Part shown: positions 30,823-63,990 of the stretch, one piece after another | Position numbering within the stretch: position 1 is the first letter of the stretch | Layout of the letters: each line of letters begins with the position of its first letter | NCBI GenBank assembly: GCA_963555815.3 | Contig: CAUVWX020000001.1 | Span: 704,001 to 768,000, forward strand | Length of the DNA: 64,000 nucleotides | Reading direction: 5' to 3' | DNA from: a bacterium | Lineage (GTDB): Bacteria > UBA8248 > JACPRG01 > G963555815 | The notes under the pieces: model-generated | Database searches by the model: none | Seen by the model: only the letters and a program-made list of their open reading frames with translations | Told to the model about the DNA's origin: nothing | Translations under genes and position numbers: made by a program

Positions 30823-30851
30823 TGAATCTTTTTGAAAAAAGGAGGGTCTAA
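30823..30851 (+). promoter_or_regulatory. ECF-sigma-type promoter upstream of MerT-like selenoprotein
   Basis: TGAATC-N17-GTCTAA, same motif and spacing as at 42667, 55858, 57863. Confidence 0.65.
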
Positions 30852-41657: not shown

Positions 41658-42014
41658 TTAGTCCTTTTCTATCTCGCCGAGCTGCTGGCGGGCCTTCTCA
41701 TACTCCGCACGAAGGCCCCGAAGGATCTCCTGGGACGTCTCCTCGGGGATGGGCCTATCGGGCTCCTCTTGACAGATTTTCTTGACCTTCTCCAGGGAGT
41801 CGAGGAGATCCTGGCAGGCTGAGCAGTCGCCCAGGCGCCCCTTCATCCGCCTCATAATGCGAGGGTCGAGCTCTCGATCCATAAACTCGGACAAGAGCGG
41901 GAAGGCCTCTTTGCATTGGAAGAACCCTGGCCACTTTCGGGTGAATGGAAAGACCGTTCGAAGGATCATGCGAATCACACCCATCTTTTTCCTGACGCCC
42001 TCAGTCCGTTCCAC
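41658..42014 (-). CDS. soluble zf-HC2 anti-sigma factor
   Basis: CKEAFPLLSEFMDREL...RLGDCSAC (His of HxxxCxxC replaced by Arg); directly downstream of ECF sigma. Confidence 0.75.
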   Translation of the reverse strand: MERTEGVRKKMGVIRMILRTVFPFTRKWPGFFQCKEAFPLLSEFMDRELDPRIMRRMKGRLGDCSACQDLLDSLEKVKKICQEEPDRPIPEETSQEILRGLRAEYEKARQQLGEIEKD

Positions 42015-42576
42015 GGCAGGACTGAAGCTCCTTTCGAAGGAAAAGCCTCGCCCGGTGGAGGCGCGATTTAACGGCCGCCACCGAGAGGTCCAAGATCTCC
42101 GCTACTTCCCTGGCCGAGCGCTCCTCGCGGTCCCGAAGGAGGAGGACCGCTCGATATTCTTCGGGCAACTGGCCGATGGCTTCAAGGATTTTCTGTTTCC
42201 CCTCCTTTTGTAAAAGGATCTCACCCGGGTCCGGGGTATACGGGTGTGTTTCCACATCCTGCCAGAACTCCTCCAGCGTTGAAGGGTCGACGGGCACCTC
42301 CCGTTCCTTCTCCTGACGCTTCAGGAAGGTGTTCACGGCGATCCGGGAAAGCCAGGTCCCGAGCTTCGCCTCACCCCTAAAATTCTTCAGTCCCCGAAAG
42401 GCCCGAAGGAAGGTCTCCTGAAGGTGATCCCGGGCTTTGTCCTCATCCCGGCACATCCTATAGAGGGGGTTATAGAGGGAGGTCTGGTAGCGGCGGACCA
42501 CTTCGTCGAAGACCTCGACCTCGCCCTGCCGAAACCGTTCCAGGACCTCATCGTCTCTGACCTCTAACGCTTCGAC
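42001..42576 (-). CDS. ECF sigma-70 factor (canonical start codon missing)
   Basis: DDEVLERFRQGE..FDEVVRRYQ, LQETFLRAF, TWLSRIAVN, EVAEILDLSVAAVKSRLHRAR; RBS AAGGGAGG is followed by GTC at 42576, first canonical start GTG 42501. Confidence 0.85.
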   Translation of the reverse strand, partial: VEALEVRDDEVLERFRQGEVEVFDEVVRRYQTSLYNPLYRMCRDEDKARDHLQETFLRAFRGLKNFRGEAKLGTWLSRIAVNTFLKRQEKEREVPVDPSTLEEFWQDVETHPYTPDPGEILLQKEGKQKILEAIGQLPEEYRAVLLLRDREERSAREVAEILDLSVAAVKSRLHRARLFLRKELQSCRGTD

Positions 42577-42666: not shown

Positions 42667-42695
42667 CTAGATCCGTTTCTTTCCAAAAGGATTCA
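42667..42695 (-). promoter_or_regulatory. putative autoregulatory ECF promoter
   Basis: TGAATC-N17-ATCTAG upstream of the ECF sigma gene. Confidence 0.65.
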
Positions 42696-42807
42696 TCCGG
42701 TGTATAAAACTTCGAGCTTTGTAGGCTTATTTTACTTGCAACATTAAATAAAACAGATGGTTTGATGGAAAGGCCCCGGACGACTTCACGTCGAGGAGGG
42801 AAAACCC

Positions 42808-55247: not shown

Positions 55248-55282
55248 AAAAAGCCCCGCCGAAGTTTCGGAGGGGTTTTTTT
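55248..55282. terminator. bidirectional intrinsic terminator
   Basis: A5-GCCCCGCCGAA/TTCGGAGGGGT-T6 between convergent genes. Confidence 0.75.
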
Positions 55283-55400
55283 CATGCAGAAACGCCCTGA
55301 AGTTTTCGTAACCTTCAGGGCGTCTGATATGGGGGCCCGGACCAGCGAGGGGGGCGAACTTCAAGAGGCCCCTGCCTCATCCGGTCCGGGTGGGGAGCCG

Positions 55401-55700
55401 TTAGCCTGAGAGACCCCGAGTAAGGGTCGCCATCTCCTTGGCGATGTTTCCCCGGAGACCTTGGAAAGTTTCGAAGGTTTTCTGGTTTCTCTCGTAGTCC
55501 GTTGGCACCGAGCCATACAGGGGGTGCCACAGGAGGGGCTTCTGGACTGAAGCTGTCTCGCTGGGGACGTAGTTCTCAGAGTCGATCGTGTTCACGGCGC
55601 CAGGGGTAGTGTGCCCCTTGAGGTCAACGGCGAGGGCCGGAGCCACGGACACCATGCTGATCGCGGCTGCCAGAGCAATACCAGTCAGAAAGCGCTTCAT
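55401..55700 (-). CDS. small secreted protein, paralog 1
   Basis: AAGGAGA RBS, signal peptide MKRFLTGIALAAAISMVSVAPALA, TIDSENYVP...PLLWHP motif. Confidence 0.85.
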   Translation of the reverse strand: MKRFLTGIALAAAISMVSVAPALAVDLKGHTTPGAVNTIDSENYVPSETASVQKPLLWHPLYGSVPTDYERNQKTFETFQGLRGNIAKEMATLTRGLSG

Positions 55701-55857
55701 TTCGAGTTCTCCTTTCGTGCCCCCTTCATGGGGGCGTTGGGTTTTTTTCCACCACCGGACGATTAACCTGATTTGGGGTCCTGGCCTTGGGTTCCCTTAA
55801 TGCCCCGGAGCGTTGGGTCGGCAGGGTTTTTATTCTCTGCTTTCCCTTTCATCCAGC

Positions 55858-55886
55858 TTAGACACGGGGGTGGGCAGAAGGGTTCA
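55858..55886 (-). promoter_or_regulatory. ECF-sigma-type promoter
   Basis: TGAACC-N17-GTCTAA. Confidence 0.65.
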
Positions 55887-56271
55887 GAAAAAGCGGAGGA
55901 AATTTTGCGGGATCCCTTGAAATGGTCCTAGAGGAGAGCTTTCCCGGAAAGGAAGATAACCCCACTCATGGGGGTTTCCCCCTGGGGGGATGGGTGTTAG
56001 GGGTTTCGGTCCTCAAAAGGGGGGGGCTATTTTACGGAGATTCGTCCTACTATGGGATTGAGTGACCTGCCGCTCAAGGCTAGGCGGGACACCAGGAAGG
56101 AGTACTCCCCCGCCTCGACAAAGCAGAGACTGGCTACCCCGCCCGGTATTACGTTAGTGGTGGCATAGATCCCCTTGTCACTTTGCTGGAAGAAAAGGGC
56201 GTGCTAACGAAGGCCGAGGTCTCAGCCAAAATCAAGGAGCTTAAGGAAACAAAGGCGAAGGGGAGTTAGTT

Positions 56272-56961
56272 ATGAGAGCGGCTCTTGTGATCGTTCTAAC
56301 GTCAATCCTATCGACCCTAACACCATTCCTTCCAGCTTGGGGCCAGTCTGAGAGTGAAACCTTCCCGTATGCGCACGATTTTATTTTAAGCCTTTCATAT
56401 GCGAAGGCCGGTTTAGATCACGAACATAACATTCAAAGGCCTACCTATTTGGAGCTTTTGAATACAACCAAGCTCGCAATAGCAGAGTACGAGAAAGCAG
56501 CTCGAACCCTCGAAGAATATACCCACAGCAATAATGAGGTAATTCAAGTGGGATCTGATGGAGCGTTATTAACCTACGTTCAGTTAATTGAAACTGATAG
56601 GGGAATTCTTGCTGAAATTCAGAATCTCTCTCGTTCTGAATCTCCTGCATTTGATTATGGTGCGTTCGTTGACAGCGTTTCCGATCTTATGGTTGAGCAG
56701 GAGCAAGCGTGGAAGAATCTTCTTCCCGCCGCCGTCTCTGTAACCTACGTGCTTAGAGAGAGTTTGGAGGAAGGCGAAGGACTTGATCGGCTAGGCATCA
56801 CAACCGAGGAGAGGGAAGAATTGATTCGCCTCATCGAAATGTCATTTGGTGAATCAGTGAAAGGGGGTCAGAAGGCAAGCCAGGAAGCAGTTGTGGGTGC
56901 GGCCGCTACGCTTTATGAATTTCTGTCACAACCAGGGTGGAAGGGATTAGACGAGGAATAA
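56272..56961 (+). CDS. secreted hypothetical protein (lower GC)
   Basis: GGGGAG RBS, signal peptide, helical acidic body; lies between the two cassette copies. Confidence 0.75.
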   Translation: MRAALVIVLTSILSTLTPFLPAWGQSESETFPYAHDFILSLSYAKAGLDHEHNIQRPTYLELLNTTKLAIAEYEKAARTLEEYTHSNNEVIQVGSDGALLTYVQLIETDRGILAEIQNLSRSESPAFDYGAFVDSVSDLMVEQEQAWKNLLPAAVSVTYVLRESLEEGEGLDRLGITTEEREELIRLIEMSFGESVKGGQKASQEAVVGAAATLYEFLSQPGWKGLDEE

Positions 56962-57330
56962 CCGCCAATTCGGACGCCTTGATCATCTCCTAAGAATCCC
57001 TGGCGTCTTATCAGGCCAGGGGGCAAGAAACGATGAAAGCGGCGTCAGGATGGAATGGAAAACCCTGTTGCCTTCTTCGCTAAATTCAAGGTGAAGCGAG
57101 AGGACGACCCAAAAGAACGAGTGATTGACGTTGAGGCTAACAGGGAGGACCCGGGGAGTTTTGTGAGGGGAGGGAAGATAGCCCCGCCGAAGTTTAGGGG
57201 GCCTTTTTTCATGCAGAAACGCCCTGAAGTTTTCGTAACCTTCAGGGCGTCTGATATGGGGGCCCGGACCGTAGGGGGGGGCAAGTTCTAATGGGCCCCA
57301 GCCTCATCCGGTCCGGGTGGGAGGCCGTTA

Positions 57331-57705
57331 TTAGCCTTCGGTACTCAGGATCTGAATTGCGGCGAGGTAATCGGCGAATCCGTGAAGGCCGCGGAACGCC
57401 TCGCCGATCTCCATGTCACGCCCCGAGATGGCACCAAAGCGGGGGTGCCAGAGGAGGGGCTGACGGACTGAAGCCGCCTCGCTGGGGACGTAGTTCTCAG
57501 AGTCGATCGTCCCCACGACGCCAAACCTGGTGTCCCACAGAGGGGCCTTTACTTCAGAAGAGGCCTTGGGGACGTAGTTCTCAGAGTCGATCGTGTTCAC
57601 GGCGCCAGGGGTAGTGTGCCCCTTGAGGTCAACGGCGAGGGCCGGAGCCACGGACACCATGCTGATCGCGGCTGCCAGAGCAATACCAGTCAGAAAGCGC
57701 TTCAT
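57331..57705 (-). CDS. small secreted protein, paralog 2 (two TIDSENYVP modules)
   Basis: First 46 codons identical to paralog 1; extra 28-aa module; divergent C-terminus. Confidence 0.85.
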   Translation of the reverse strand: MKRFLTGIALAAAISMVSVAPALAVDLKGHTTPGAVNTIDSENYVPKASSEVKAPLWDTRFGVVGTIDSENYVPSEAASVRQPLLWHPRFGAISGRDMEIGEAFRGLHGFADYLAAIQILSTEG

Positions 57706-57862
57706 TTCGAGTTCTCCTTTCGTGCCCCCTTCATGGGGGCGTTGGGTTTTTTTCCACCACCGGACGATTAACCTGATTTGGGGTCCTGGCCTTGGGTTCC
57801 CTTAATGCCCCGGAGCGTTGGGTCGGCAGGGTTTTTATTCTCTGCTTTCCCTTTCATCCAGC

Positions 57863-57891
57863 TTAGACACGGGGGTGGGCAGAAGGATTCA
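57863..57891 (-). promoter_or_regulatory. ECF-sigma-type promoter
   Basis: TGAATC-N17-GTCTAA. Confidence 0.65.
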
Positions 57892-57944
57892 GAAAAAGTG
57901 GAGAAATTCGGCGAAAGGCCTGAAATGGCCCGCGGGATGAAGAC

Positions 57945-59081
57945 CTAGGACTGGCGCTTTTCCGGAGCGGTGTCGGCCCTGGAGGGCTTGCTCCCCGTGC
58001 TTGCGCGGGCGGCCTCCAGGGGGAAGACGCGATACTCCGCCGAACAGGGGGGGCCATGGCTAAGGTGGAGGGTTCGCTCTGAGAGGTCCATCAGGAGGGA
58101 GCCGACCGATTCGAGCTGCTCGGCGGCGGGGAGATGGAGGTTCGGGTGGCGGCAGATGCTATGGGGGTGATTCATGTGGTCGCGAAAGAGGGCTTTCAGG
58201 GTCTTGAGATCAATCCGCCCGGGCATCTTTCCGCAGATCTCCCAAGCCCGTTGAGATCGGAGGGGGGAGTCCGGAAAGCGCTGGACGCCGACGTCTTGGT
58301 GAGAGAATTCGGGATGGACGAAGTGGTTGCAGTGGACGAGGAGACCTTCTCCCGGCTTCAGGACCCTCACGGCCTCGGGGTCGGCCTCTAGGTCTAAGGC
58401 CTCTCCCTTGGCGTGGGCCAGGAGGTAGTTCCCGGAGGAACAGCGTTGGGCTTCCTCGATGAGTCGCCTCGCTTCAGGCACGCTCTCGGCCCCATAGACG
58501 GCCCGCAGGAGGACGTGGGCCGGGACCCCCACCTGACCCCGGTCGAGGTCTGTCACCATGGCGTTGAAGCAAACTCCGAGGCCTGCGTCATTAAAGCCCG
58601 CCTTGGCCAGGAGACCGGCCTCGACAAAGGTGGCGAAGGCGGGCCTCCCCTCCGGCTCGGCAAAGAGAAGGACCGAGCTCTCCCGGGCCGTTGTCGTCCA
58701 GTCCCAGTTCTGGGCCAGGAGGGTGTGGCCGTCTCGGGTTGCAGCGGGGAGGACGGCGACCGCGGTGCAGCCTTGGAGGCACCCTGCCTTCAAGAGGATC
58801 TCGGTCCGAAGGTTCAGGGCCAGGACGGTCTCCAAAGAGACCCCACTCCCCTCGGCAATCCCCTCAAGTTCTTTCAGAATAGAGGGGTCAAAGGCCTCGA
58901 TGGTGGGCAGGAACTCTCGGGCGAGGCGGCTGGCCGACCGAAGGTCCATTCCGGCATAATGCCGGAAGGAACGCTCGCAGGCCCGAAGGGCAAGTTGGAT
59001 CTGGACCCTGGCCCCCTTGCCATACTGGCGCCCGAGTTCAAAAGGGCTTCCTGAGGCGGAAAGGATGGGAAAGAAGCTCAT
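57945..59081 (-). CDS. C45 family autoproteolytic acyltransferase/peptidase
   Basis: ELEGIAEG, LNLRTEI, GCT cleavage site, AQNWDW, GFNDAGLGVCFN, HCNHF, SICRH. Confidence 0.9.
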   Translation of the reverse strand: MSFFPILSASGSPFELGRQYGKGARVQIQLALRACERSFRHYAGMDLRSASRLAREFLPTIEAFDPSILKELEGIAEGSGVSLETVLALNLRTEILLKAGCLQGCTAVAVLPAATRDGHTLLAQNWDWTTTARESSVLLFAEPEGRPAFATFVEAGLLAKAGFNDAGLGVCFNAMVTDLDRGQVGVPAHVLLRAVYGAESVPEARRLIEEAQRCSSGNYLLAHAKGEALDLEADPEAVRVLKPGEGLLVHCNHFVHPEFSHQDVGVQRFPDSPLRSQRAWEICGKMPGRIDLKTLKALFRDHMNHPHSICRHPNLHLPAAEQLESVGSLLMDLSERTLHLSHGPPCSAEYRVFPLEAARASTGSKPSRADTAPEKRQS

Positions 59082-61123: not shown

Positions 61124-61853
61124 CTACCAATGCAAGGAAACTCCCGCAACAAACGAATTGACCAAAAAGTCTTGGTCGTAGGATCCGACCTGATCTCCCA
61201 CGGCTATGCCACCCACACTGGTCTGAAGGGGAGTAGGAGCGTTCAAGTTGAAGTATGAAAATCTGTACGCCCCGAAAATGGCAATCTCTCCCAGACCGAA
61301 TTTCAGGAGAAAGAGCTTGGCTCCCGCCTCAGCTTGGACTCCCCCGGCGACCGAGGTGTCCTCTACCTTGAGCGTGAGTCCAGGAGTCACAGAGGCTTGT
61401 GATTCTTCTGTGATCGCCACAAAGAGCGCGCGGTCCAAAGCCGACATAGGGTTGAAACCTCCCACGGGGAAAGCCCACGCTCCCCAGAATACCGGGAAAA
61501 CGCACCAACGCGTTAAACCCAACTGTATAGACGTCTACGTCAACCCGGGTGCTCCCGTTGGAGAGCACCAGATCAGGGGCCATATACCCGGCGTCCATCT
61601 CCGCCCCAAACTAGGGGAGGGCTTCGAACCAGAAGCCGACCTTCTCGCCGAAGATCGCCGTCTCATCGGGTTGAGTGGCCCCAAGGGTGACCGTGAAGTC
61701 ACCTCCCTCCACCGGGGAGCGCGCCTCGTCCGTGAGGATACCGTAACCGCCATAAGCTGCAATGAACGGCTCTGCAGAGGCTGGCGGAGTGTAAAAGAGG
61801 AGACTCGCCGCTATAAAGAATGCTGCAATGAGCCCACTCACCCATTTTTTCAT
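61124..61853 (-). pseudogene. outer-membrane beta-barrel protein, nonsense + frameshift
   Basis: Signal peptide, ALP-TAG(61611)-FGAEMD in frame, then frameshift at PYVGFGP/ALFVA near 61430; terminal LHW. Confidence 0.8.
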
Positions 61854-62271: not shown

Positions 62272-62967
62272 TTAACGCACATCCGGGTAGAGGCGCTTAA
62301 GTATTCTGGGGGAGACCCCGACGAGATGGCCCAGGGTCACAGCCCACATGATTATGAGCGTCCGCCCTACCCCCATCCTGTCCCACCGCCGACTTGAACT
62401 CGCGACGTGGGCGGAAAGGAGCCTCACCTTTCCCCTTCGCCTCAGGCGCGTCATCAGGTCCGCGTCCTCCAGTATCTCCAACTCCCGGTACCCCCCCAGG
62501 GCCAAGAAATCCTCCTGGCGGATGAATGGGGCCTGGTCCCCGTAGATGGTGCCGAGCCAGCGGGCCCTCTGGTTTGCGAAAAAGGACAGGGCACCGTAGA
62601 AGAGGCCGGGCTTATCGAGCTTGATACGAAAGGCGCCTCCGACAGTTCGGGGGTCCTGAAGGGTTTTGCGAATCTGGGAGAAGGCGTTTGAGGGGAGGAG
62701 GGTATCGGCGTGGAGGAAGAGGAGGACATCTCCCTTTGCATGGCGGGCTCCGGTGTTCATCTGGGATGCGCGGCCACGGGACGCCGTGAGGACCTTGGCG
62801 AAGGGGGATGCCTCCTTACGGCTTCTGTCCTCGCTCCCCCCGTCGACGACGATGACCTCCTGCCCTTTGTCAAGGTCCTGGAGGTGGCCGAGCGTCCGCG
62901 CAATCGTCTTCTCCTCGTTCAGGATGGGGACGATGATGGAAATGACCCCTTCAGACGATGTGGGCAT
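62272..62967 (-). CDS. GT2 glycosyltransferase, TIGR04283-like (rSAM/selenodomain-associated)
   Basis: ISIIVPILNEE, VVDGGS.D, GRASQMN.GA, LFLHADT, YGDQ, ILED, SSRRW. Confidence 0.85.
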   Translation of the reverse strand: MPTSSEGVISIIVPILNEEKTIARTLGHLQDLDKGQEVIVVDGGSEDRSRKEASPFAKVLTASRGRASQMNTGARHAKGDVLLFLHADTLLPSNAFSQIRKTLQDPRTVGGAFRIKLDKPGLFYGALSFFANQRARWLGTIYGDQAPFIRQEDFLALGGYRELEILEDADLMTRLRRRGKVRLLSAHVASSSRRWDRMGVGRTLIIMWAVTLGHLVGVSPRILKRLYPDVR

Positions 62968-63099
62968 CAGGAGACCCCGTTTGGTTTTTTCCCATGCGGC
63001 TTCACAAGATTCAGGGAAGCGTTGACATCTCCGGTGCGATGGTGAGCCTGGTCATGCCAGCAGGAGAAGCGGGACAACACGTTGGACCTATCTTCTTTA

Positions 63100-63990
63100 T
63101 CAGCCGCTCTTCAGGAGGAAGGCGTGGAACGCCTGGCAGATGGGGGTCCGGTAGCGGACCTTGTGGTGGGCGATATAAAAATATCGAGTCAGGGAGGCCC
63201 CTGCGATGGCCACCTCCTTGAGCAGCCCCATCTCCAGATCACTCCTCACGGCGAACCGGGAGATGATAGAGGTTCCCACTCCCGCCTTGACGCCCTCCCG
63301 GACGGCCTCACTGCTCCCCATCTCGGCCACCACCTGAAGGCGGCGGGCATCCAGGCCCAGATCTTGAAGCTTCTCCTCCATCGTCCTTCGGGAGCCCGAT
63401 CCCTCCTCTCGCAGGATGAAGGGGTGGTCCGTCAGGTTCCGGACACCCACTTTCCCTTTGGCCGCCCAGGGATGTTGGGGGTGGACGACCAGGATCAGCT
63501 CATCCTCTCGGAAGGTCTCGAAGACGAGATGGGCCTCATCCATCCGGGCCCCGACGACGCCAAGCTCGATCTTTCCCTCCAGGACCCCATGGCAGATGGA
63601 GGCCGAGTCGCCGATCTGAAGGCTGATGCCCACGTGGGGATGGCGCCTCTTGAACTCGCCGATGAGGGGTGGGAGGAGATATTCCCCTGGAATGGTGCTC
63701 CCCCCCAGTCGCAGGGTCCCCTTCATGGCCCCGGTGAACTGCTGAAGGGCCTGGATAGCTTCTTGGCGAAGCGCCAGGATCTGGTGAGCGTAATCGTAAA
63801 GGATCTTCCCCGCCTGGGTGAGGGCCACCTCCCGGCCCAGGCGGTCAAAGAGGCGAAGGCCAAAGGCGTCCTCCAGGGACTTGATGTGACCGCTGGCGGT
63901 CGGTTGGGTCAGGGAGATGGCTTCGGCCGCCTTGGAGAAGCTCTTGAGGTCGGCGACCTTGCAGAAGAGCTCAAGCTGGCGGATGTCCAT
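63100..63990 (-). CDS. LysR-family regulator (CysL-like / selenium-metabolism-associated type)
   Basis: SFSKAAE..LTQPT.S.HI..LE HTH; GGSTIPGEYLLP, REEGSGSR, GSSEAV. Confidence 0.9.
   Translation of the reverse strand: MDIRQLELFCKVADLKSFSKAAEAISLTQPTASGHIKSLEDAFGLRLFDRLGREVALTQAGKILYDYAHQILALRQEAIQALQQFTGAMKGTLRLGGSTIPGEYLLPPLIGEFKRRHPHVGISLQIGDSASICHGVLEGKIELGVVGARMDEAHLVFETFREDELILVVHPQHPWAAKGKVGVRNLTDHPFILREEGSGSRRTMEEKLQDLGLDARRLQVVAEMGSSEAVREGVKAGVGTSIISRFAVRSDLEMGLLKEVAIAGASLTRYFYIAHHKVRYRTPICQAFHAFLLKSG

Follow-up and report, generated by a model that had tools for sequence, protein, structure and literature searches.

At the cpxP locus of Escherichia coli, an envelope-stress promoter drives a transcript that encodes a small periplasmic protein and whose 3' untranslated region (UTR) yields a small RNA (sRNA), CpxQ (PMC4817254). 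Regulons of the extracytoplasmic function (ECF) sigma group ECF26, such as that of Sinorhizobium meliloti RpoE1, are described in PMC6180224 as small and autoregulated, with promoters of the form GAAT..N..GTCT and a hypothetical protein carrying a signal peptide as a top target; the mapped RpoE1 promoter shows the layout GAAT..GTCTAA (Table 1 of that source). Prokaryotic paralogs may also evolve in concert, so that their segments resemble each other more closely inside one genome than across genomes, as set out in PMC6053082. Here we describe a locus that resembles these systems in part. It lies in a stretch of 64,000 nucleotides (the window) from a bacterium of the lineage UBA8248 (GenBank assembly GCA_963555815.3, contig CAUVWX020000001.1, positions 704,001 to 768,000), and consists of two direct-repeat cassettes, copies A and B, each encoding a small protein with a predicted signal peptide. 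We interpret the two as orphan genes for secreted proteins that belong to a predicted ECF regulon and undergo segmental gene conversion.

The layout proposed for the cassettes is the same as that of cpxP/CpxQ, with the release of a 3' RNA only proposed here, from sequence. The two loci have no sequence relation, and CpxP is under a two-component system, whereas the cassettes lie behind a predicted ECF promoter. With the ECF26 regulons the locus shares the promoter form, a predicted autoregulation, the small size of the regulon and a secreted hypothetical protein among the targets; it differs in its -35 element (TGAAYC rather than GGAATA) and in the soluble-looking zf-HC2 anti-sigma of its relatives. 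Compared with concerted evolution as PMC6053082 presents it, the process at this locus is segmental, brackets a diverged core of tiny orphan genes, and is caught as strain polymorphism.

On the evidence of their sequences the cassettes are two old tandem paralogs, whose coordinates are collected in Table 1 below; both open reading frames (ORFs) are on the minus strand. An earlier, sequence-only reading of this DNA had reported perfectly identical blocks of 320 bp and 67 bp, 46 shared initial codons, and an extra 28-residue module in copy B with an exact 27-bp repeat, and exact comparison of the copies reproduces all of these; the 27-nt segment, which encodes TIDSENYVP, is identical at three sites (55563-55589, 57568-57594 and 57484-57510). 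Other boundaries had to be redrawn. The 320-bp block, said to contain the promoter, terminates within the -35 element at a single-base difference between the copies; the 67-bp block is identical as described but is only the core of a repeated 3' UTR of about 150 nt with three hairpins. The repeat proposed as TIDSENYVP-x7/8-PL(L)W(H/D)xx(F/Y)G exists but is better registered as x3-[GW][HD][TP]x[PFY]G-..-TIDSENYVP, with TIDSENYVP at the end of the unit, which gives about 1.5 units in copy A and about 2.5 in copy B. A count of paralogs returned these two cassettes and no third copy in the whole 2.08-Mb genome, in which the pair is one of 13 repeat pairs of at least 250 nt and at least 97% identity.

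The sequence-only reading had named an assembly collapse or chimera as the finding that could overturn it, and we give such an artefact a negligible probability. No public contig spans both copies or the whole stretch, but both payloads and the intervening spacer are covered by contigs from runs X1, X2, X5 and X6. These runs come from four studies, and the source sample may be among them. The shared block assembles as a single unitig of roughly twofold depth, with branching where the tract ends (12.6 against 4.6-7.7 in X1, and 9.6 against 4.2-6.6 in X2), and the related genome G001 also carries a duplicated 3' block.

It had further been suggested that gene conversion homogenises the flanks while the enclosed payload diversifies; strain variation upholds the first part and contradicts the second. 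The tract shared by the two copies measures 320 nt in the window, 256 nt in X1 (55626-55881) and 274 nt in X5 (55578-55851), and it ends at different positions in X1, X2 and X5. In the promoter region of copy A, the sequence at 55852-55877 differs from the window in X5 and X6, and the copy-B-specific contig of X5 bears the same L33 allele as copy A, both window copies having P33. Of the variant columns in the 3' block, four unite the copies of the same genome, none unites copies in the same position, and one is crosswise. Run X9 holds a contig that joins the tail of copy A to the DNA upstream of copy B, a single-copy recombinant, with word shares of 0.37-0.38 in three runs of its sample versus 0.374 expected from a 2005-nt deletion; in G001, copy B is intact and the A site retains only the promoter, the last few codons and the hairpins. 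The tract ends, the deletion contig and the loss at the A site of G001 together indicate that conversion and deletion act on the flanks while the payloads remain stable. The identical control regions likely reflect copies that overwrite each other by ongoing gene conversion.

The payloads are stable and under purifying selection. Between X5 and the window, 10 of 274 nt differ in the supposedly constant block and 1 of 391 nt in the payloads (Fisher p=0.0009), with 3 of 690 nt in the 229-residue spacer gene; at the strain level the constant and variable parts thus exchange places, since the constant block varies more than the payloads. In two database proteins (P0004 and P0006), all differences from copy A fall within residues 12-44. 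The ratio of nonsynonymous to synonymous substitution rates (dN/dS) stays below 1 throughout the variable part, which gives no sign of diversification: copy B against its G001 ortholog, to which it is 87% identical, yields 0.40 overall, 0.26 in the repeats and 0.42 in the tail, against a background of 0.27 over eight flanking genes, and the tails of copies A and B yield 0.68 at a dS of about 1.3 (manual alignment, near saturation). The value for the signal peptide is 1.11 and rests on just four changes.

A weak DNA match elsewhere in the genome led to a bipartite motif, TGAAYC-N17/18-GTCTAA, located 157 nt upstream of each start codon. This predicted ECF promoter was missed by the earlier note, as was a possible link, discussed below, to an RNA without an ORF. 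The exact motif has 7, 3 and 6 matches in this genome (G000), in G001 and in the sister-genus genome G002, respectively, and none in reversed controls; all eight strict matches have a spacer of 17 or 18 and an upstream T that is absent from the pattern, and four permuted -35 controls gave one or two matches each. A weaker copy of the motif (19.6 bits) lies upstream of the ECF sigma gene of the window, at about 42667-42697, and in G002 an exact site precedes an ECF sigma gene followed by a zf-HC2 anti-sigma gene. The sigma factor encoded in the window, whose best NCBIfam match (PRK11922) is below cut-off, is likely to be the cognate sigma that reads the motif. Other sites precede genes for a predicted lipoprotein, membrane or secreted proteins, an FHA/trypsin-like protein and redox enzymes, and a thioredoxin gene in G002.

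Further sites of the same type were observed in this genome. An exact motif at 30823-30851 of the window lies just downstream of a 482-residue ORF, with no clear target ORF found. Back-to-back ECF-type promoters at C1:1014506-1014544 (locus L013) face a 102-residue membrane protein and the FHA/trypsin-like gene, and two more are found in a region (L014; C1:108545-112514) where a 961-nt duplication with a broken pyridoxamine-oxidase-like gene flanks a globin gene and a broken dehydrogenase-like gene.

The N-termini of both proteins show, by inspection, a Sec-type signal pattern, with a K/R start, a hydrophobic core, AxA at residues 22-24, no Cys and no twin Arg, which makes secretion plausible. 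The mature forms, predicted at 75 residues for copy A (isoelectric point 6.1) and 100 residues for copy B (5.0), are built from imperfect 28-residue repeats and an amphipathic tail; they are net acidic, contain two or three His, one or two Met and no Cys each, and lack dibasic sites. That the ORFs are coding is supported by a ribosome site, by in-frame indels, and by the overall dN/dS against G001.

The statement that no family could be recognised stands, with no Pfam or NCBIfam match at cut-off for either protein and relatives confined to the genus. The best Atlas score was 0.89, to hypothetical proteins only; a word-index search gave four clusters among 20 candidates, all from this genus; and HMMER over 1.84 billion representatives gave three genuine matches, again all genus members, two long repeat proteins with Ig and C2 domains having been dropped as sums of weak matches. 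None of the 7996 proteins scored was a longer form. Relatives occur in 2 of the 61 genomes examined, and a motif search across genomes and metagenomes retrieved only genus members (0 of 608 pattern matches in JGI metagenomes; one locus, that of G001, in the species genomes). Neither the proteins nor hairpin H1 had a match among 80 metagenome loci with the promoter motif, and the UPF0047 neighbourhoods of G003, G004 and G006 contain no such cassette. As for curli-type amyloid, there is no Pfam curlin match, and the CsgG-like matches are far from the locus. Literature searches with general terms found no paper on this locus, an absence that is not proof.

We lean towards the hypothesis that the cassettes encode an exported pair of envelope-stress effectors of the ECF sigma, with flanks homogenised by gene conversion. 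The sigma factor would read the motif and switch on both cassettes, each transcribed as one monocistronic unit of promoter, 150-nt leader, ORF, hairpins H1 and H2, and terminator. Signal peptidase I would release the two Sec-exported acidic repeat proteins, which would probably be unfolded except for short hairpin repeats and the amphipathic tail, and which might protect the envelope, for example by binding stressed proteins or the membrane. The 3' hairpins would at least stabilise the mRNA and might be released as a small RNA, while recombination would keep the control regions of both copies alike.

Several observations count against this hypothesis. The protective role at the envelope is a guess made by analogy, and the targets in relatives include thioredoxin, so that the response could be to redox rather than envelope stress. 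One of the five permuted -35 controls gave ten matches, more than the real eight; a weight-matrix scan gave 16 matches, of which eight are training sites or their duplicate, versus three in the reversed genome; and the exact motif has no match in G003 and G004. The AlphaFold model of the pair is uninformative (predicted local distance difference test, pLDDT, of 35, from five sequences), and is too poor either to support an unfolded state or to serve in a fold search. Finally, assemblers can drop low-depth alleles, and copy B of X5 is at depth 2, which makes the length of the X5 tract less certain.

Different identities have been considered for the proteins. Multi-core precursors of ribosomally synthesised and post-translationally modified peptides (RiPPs), such as cyanobactin PatE, combine a constant N-terminus with repeated units, and the cassettes, with a signal peptide, repeats and a varying number of modules, could be taken for a RiPP, bacteriocin or kin-recognition precursor with a constant leader and hypervariable cores, the more so as a C45 peptidase gene lies directly upstream of copy B and one gene for PqqD or a RiPP recognition element (RRE) is found in G001, about 32 kb away. 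We consider this improbable: the N-terminus is a Sec signal rather than a leader, and the cores are conserved, both between strains and, in the modules, between species. YcaO is absent from two of two genomes, no PqqD/RRE gene was found in G000, and no tailoring genes occur among the neighbours (lanthipeptide, radical-SAM and C39 families were not searched); in G001 the C45 gene is reduced to remnants where copy B stays intact, and the mature proteins are acidic and without Cys or dibasic sites. Single-copy states also exist, so the two copies are not an obligate pair. The multi-core, kin-signal and metal-binding roles put forward by the sequence-only reading gain no support. An extracellular copper- or metal-binding peptide, to which the WHP motifs and the CopD-like and weakly cupredoxin-like neighbours might point, appears very improbable, as each mature protein offers few His and Met and no Cys, one repeat has D in place of H, and the CopD-like and cupredoxin-like matches are both below cut-off. 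RF-G or LY-G closes the repeats, and F-x-G-L-[RH]-G is found in the tails; these motifs resemble the ends of RFamide and tachykinin-related peptides. This is a short resemblance in sequence only; mimicry of animal amidated peptides is highly improbable, for no basic cleavage residues follow the Gly, no host association is established, and motifs of three to five residues arise by chance.

The alternative that carries more weight concerns the RNA. The 3' UTRs of the cassettes fold far better than shuffled sequences (z -2.8 to -6.1); the leader, tried as a structured RNA or riboswitch, was rejected (z -0.03 and -0.77, no Rfam match). In G002, G003 and G005, which represent two sister genera, the promoter motif occurs on the same side of a CopD-like gene as here, and downstream of it lie about 210 nt of C-rich, structured sequence with no common ORF (by inspection). 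These sequences are mutually homologous (BLAST E about 1e-9), and 7 of 55 base pairs are changed on both sides, a number reached in 0 of 500 shuffles, with the structure derived from the same three sequences. No RNA of the cassettes or the relatives matched Rfam above the gathering threshold, and we regard the ORF-less sequence as a candidate new small RNA.

This raises the possibility that the RNA is the conserved function: an ECF-driven structured sRNA would have acquired a coding insert in this genus, and each cassette would give rise to a secreted protein together with a regulatory 3' RNA. Such a scenario is compatible with the envelope-effector hypothesis, shifts what matters most, and is in our judgement possible though on balance not probable. 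Besides the shared promoter context, the G002 hairpin shares 10-bp arms with H1, and the A site of G001 retains the promoter and hairpins without an ORF. A covariance model built from the relatives alone gave 79 matches in 84 kb, among which the four cassette hairpins took places 1-4, on the right strand (E 0.014-0.085); with 21 promoter loci, the cassette came first of seven. Against this, the matches are not significant genome-wide, neither RNA model recovers the cassettes in G000 or G001, the full-length model scores about 5 bits, and nhmmer missed the cassettes. Alignment of the leader to the relatives' RNA is no better than shuffles (66-411 of 500 reach the score), that of the 3' part is matched by 3-258 of 500, and the joint seven-sequence alignment of H1 shows no covariation. 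There is no match in G004 or G006; in the relatives other genes separate the CopD-like gene from the promoter, and the CopD-like gene itself is only 37-43% identical. Hfq, on which CpxQ depends, was not found in any of the five genomes searched (the search control rang in 5 of 14). Homology of the cassette hairpin to the relatives' RNA accordingly appears a little better than an even call, suggestive but not significant genome-wide, and a separate RNA function is less likely than that homology. We hold it doubtful, in particular, that in one genus an undescribed ECF-dependent sRNA of this bacterial family acquired a secreted-protein ORF, lying between the leader and the 3' hairpin.

Table 1. 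Features of the cassette locus and of the related RNA loci (window positions unless another locus is named).
Feature	Position	Strand	Remarks
ECF sigma gene	42001..42501	minus	sole full-length ECF-sized match among 5 sigma matches
Terminator-like hairpin	55252..55281		T-runs on both strands, facing the convergent thrB-UPF0047 genes (by inspection)
67-bp block, copy A	55277..55343	minus	identical to 57204-57270; C-rich linker and hairpin H2 (55292-55323)
3' hairpin H1, copy A	55334..55390	minus	from folding; z -5.2 for the 150-nt UTR
Copy A ORF, 99 aa	55401..55700	minus	predicted signal peptide 1-24 (AxA site), ~1.5 repeats, amphipathic C-terminal segment
320-bp tract	55562..55881		identical to 57567-57886
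Leader, copy A, ~150 nt	55701..55851	minus	hairpin before AAAGGAG ribosome site; structure no better than shuffles (z -0.03)
Predicted ECF-sigma promoter, copy A (TGAAYC..N17..GTCTAA)	55858..55886	minus	-10 and spacer identical to those of copy B
C-terminal fragment of a multi-paralog, secreted, weakly cupredoxin-like gene	56030..56191	minus	sequence match below cut-off
229-aa ORF	56272..56961	plus	signal-like N-terminus, 47% GC, no Pfam/NCBIfam match at cut-off
3' UTR, copy B	57180..57330	minus	H1 57263-57317, H2 57219-57250, terminator-like hairpin; z -2.8
Copy B ORF, 124 aa	57331..57705	minus	same signal peptide, ~2.5 repeats, amphipathic tail
Leader, copy B	57706..57856	minus	identical to copy A leader
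Predicted ECF-sigma promoter, copy B	57863..57891	minus	motif; conserved in G001
ORF-less structured RNA candidate, ~210 nt, G002	L070:88-322	minus	behind ECF-type promoter
ORF-less structured RNA candidate, ~210 nt, G003	L079:681-932	plus	behind ECF-type promoter
ORF-less structured RNA candidate, ~210 nt, G005	L078:3378-3631	minus	behind ECF-type promoter

Between the cassettes, the fragment of the cupredoxin-like gene is close to a copy at C2:631029-631322, one of at least four other paralogs in the genome, and G001 has an intact 160-residue member of this family in the same place (L005:10266-10748). The 229-residue ORF is conserved between strains and was not found at the G001 locus; it is likely an insertion. 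Directly upstream of copy B, at 57945-59081, lies the gene for a C45 autoproteolytic acyltransferase/hydrolase, of which short remnants are left in G001. Farther on, an outer-membrane beta-barrel gene appears split at 61124-61853, its G001 counterpart being an intact ORF of 242 residues, and the region 62272-63990 encodes a TIGR04283 glycosyltransferase and a selenium-metabolism-associated LysR regulator, both above the NCBIfam cut-off.

The sister genera also possess a multicopy family of acidic secreted proteins of 90-120 residues without a Pfam match, here called A4 (loci L019, L020, L026, L032-L035 and L037 in G002 and G003; L027 in G005). Several of its copies lie behind the ECF motif and two behind a different, sigma-70-like upstream region, and the G005 copy has an internal stop. 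The family is like the cassette pair in size, acidity, lack of Cys, the placement of several copies behind the same motif, a near-identical pair and an EAFxG-like segment; its homology to the cassette proteins is not significant, as 4-6 of 60 shuffles reach the profile scores. Its AlphaFold model (pLDDT 45) is too poor for a fold search.

At this locus an orphan secreted protein can be assigned to a regulatory system, in the form of a predicted ECF regulon and its motif, within a lineage that is known from assembled genomes. The pair is also a clean case in which identical flanks around a diverged core would reflect conversion between old paralogs and not a diversifying payload, as which they are easily misread. 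The analysis further exposes an ORF-less structured RNA without an Rfam match and a second family of secreted proteins without a Pfam match. Should the RNA link be borne out, this would be an illustration of how a protein-plus-RNA stress transcript can arise from a non-coding one. If the ORF indeed arose between leader and 3' hairpin, a gene without homologs would have been born inside an sRNA gene, and living relatives would between them still display its ORF-less, ORF-bearing, duplicated, recombined and ORF-deleted states.

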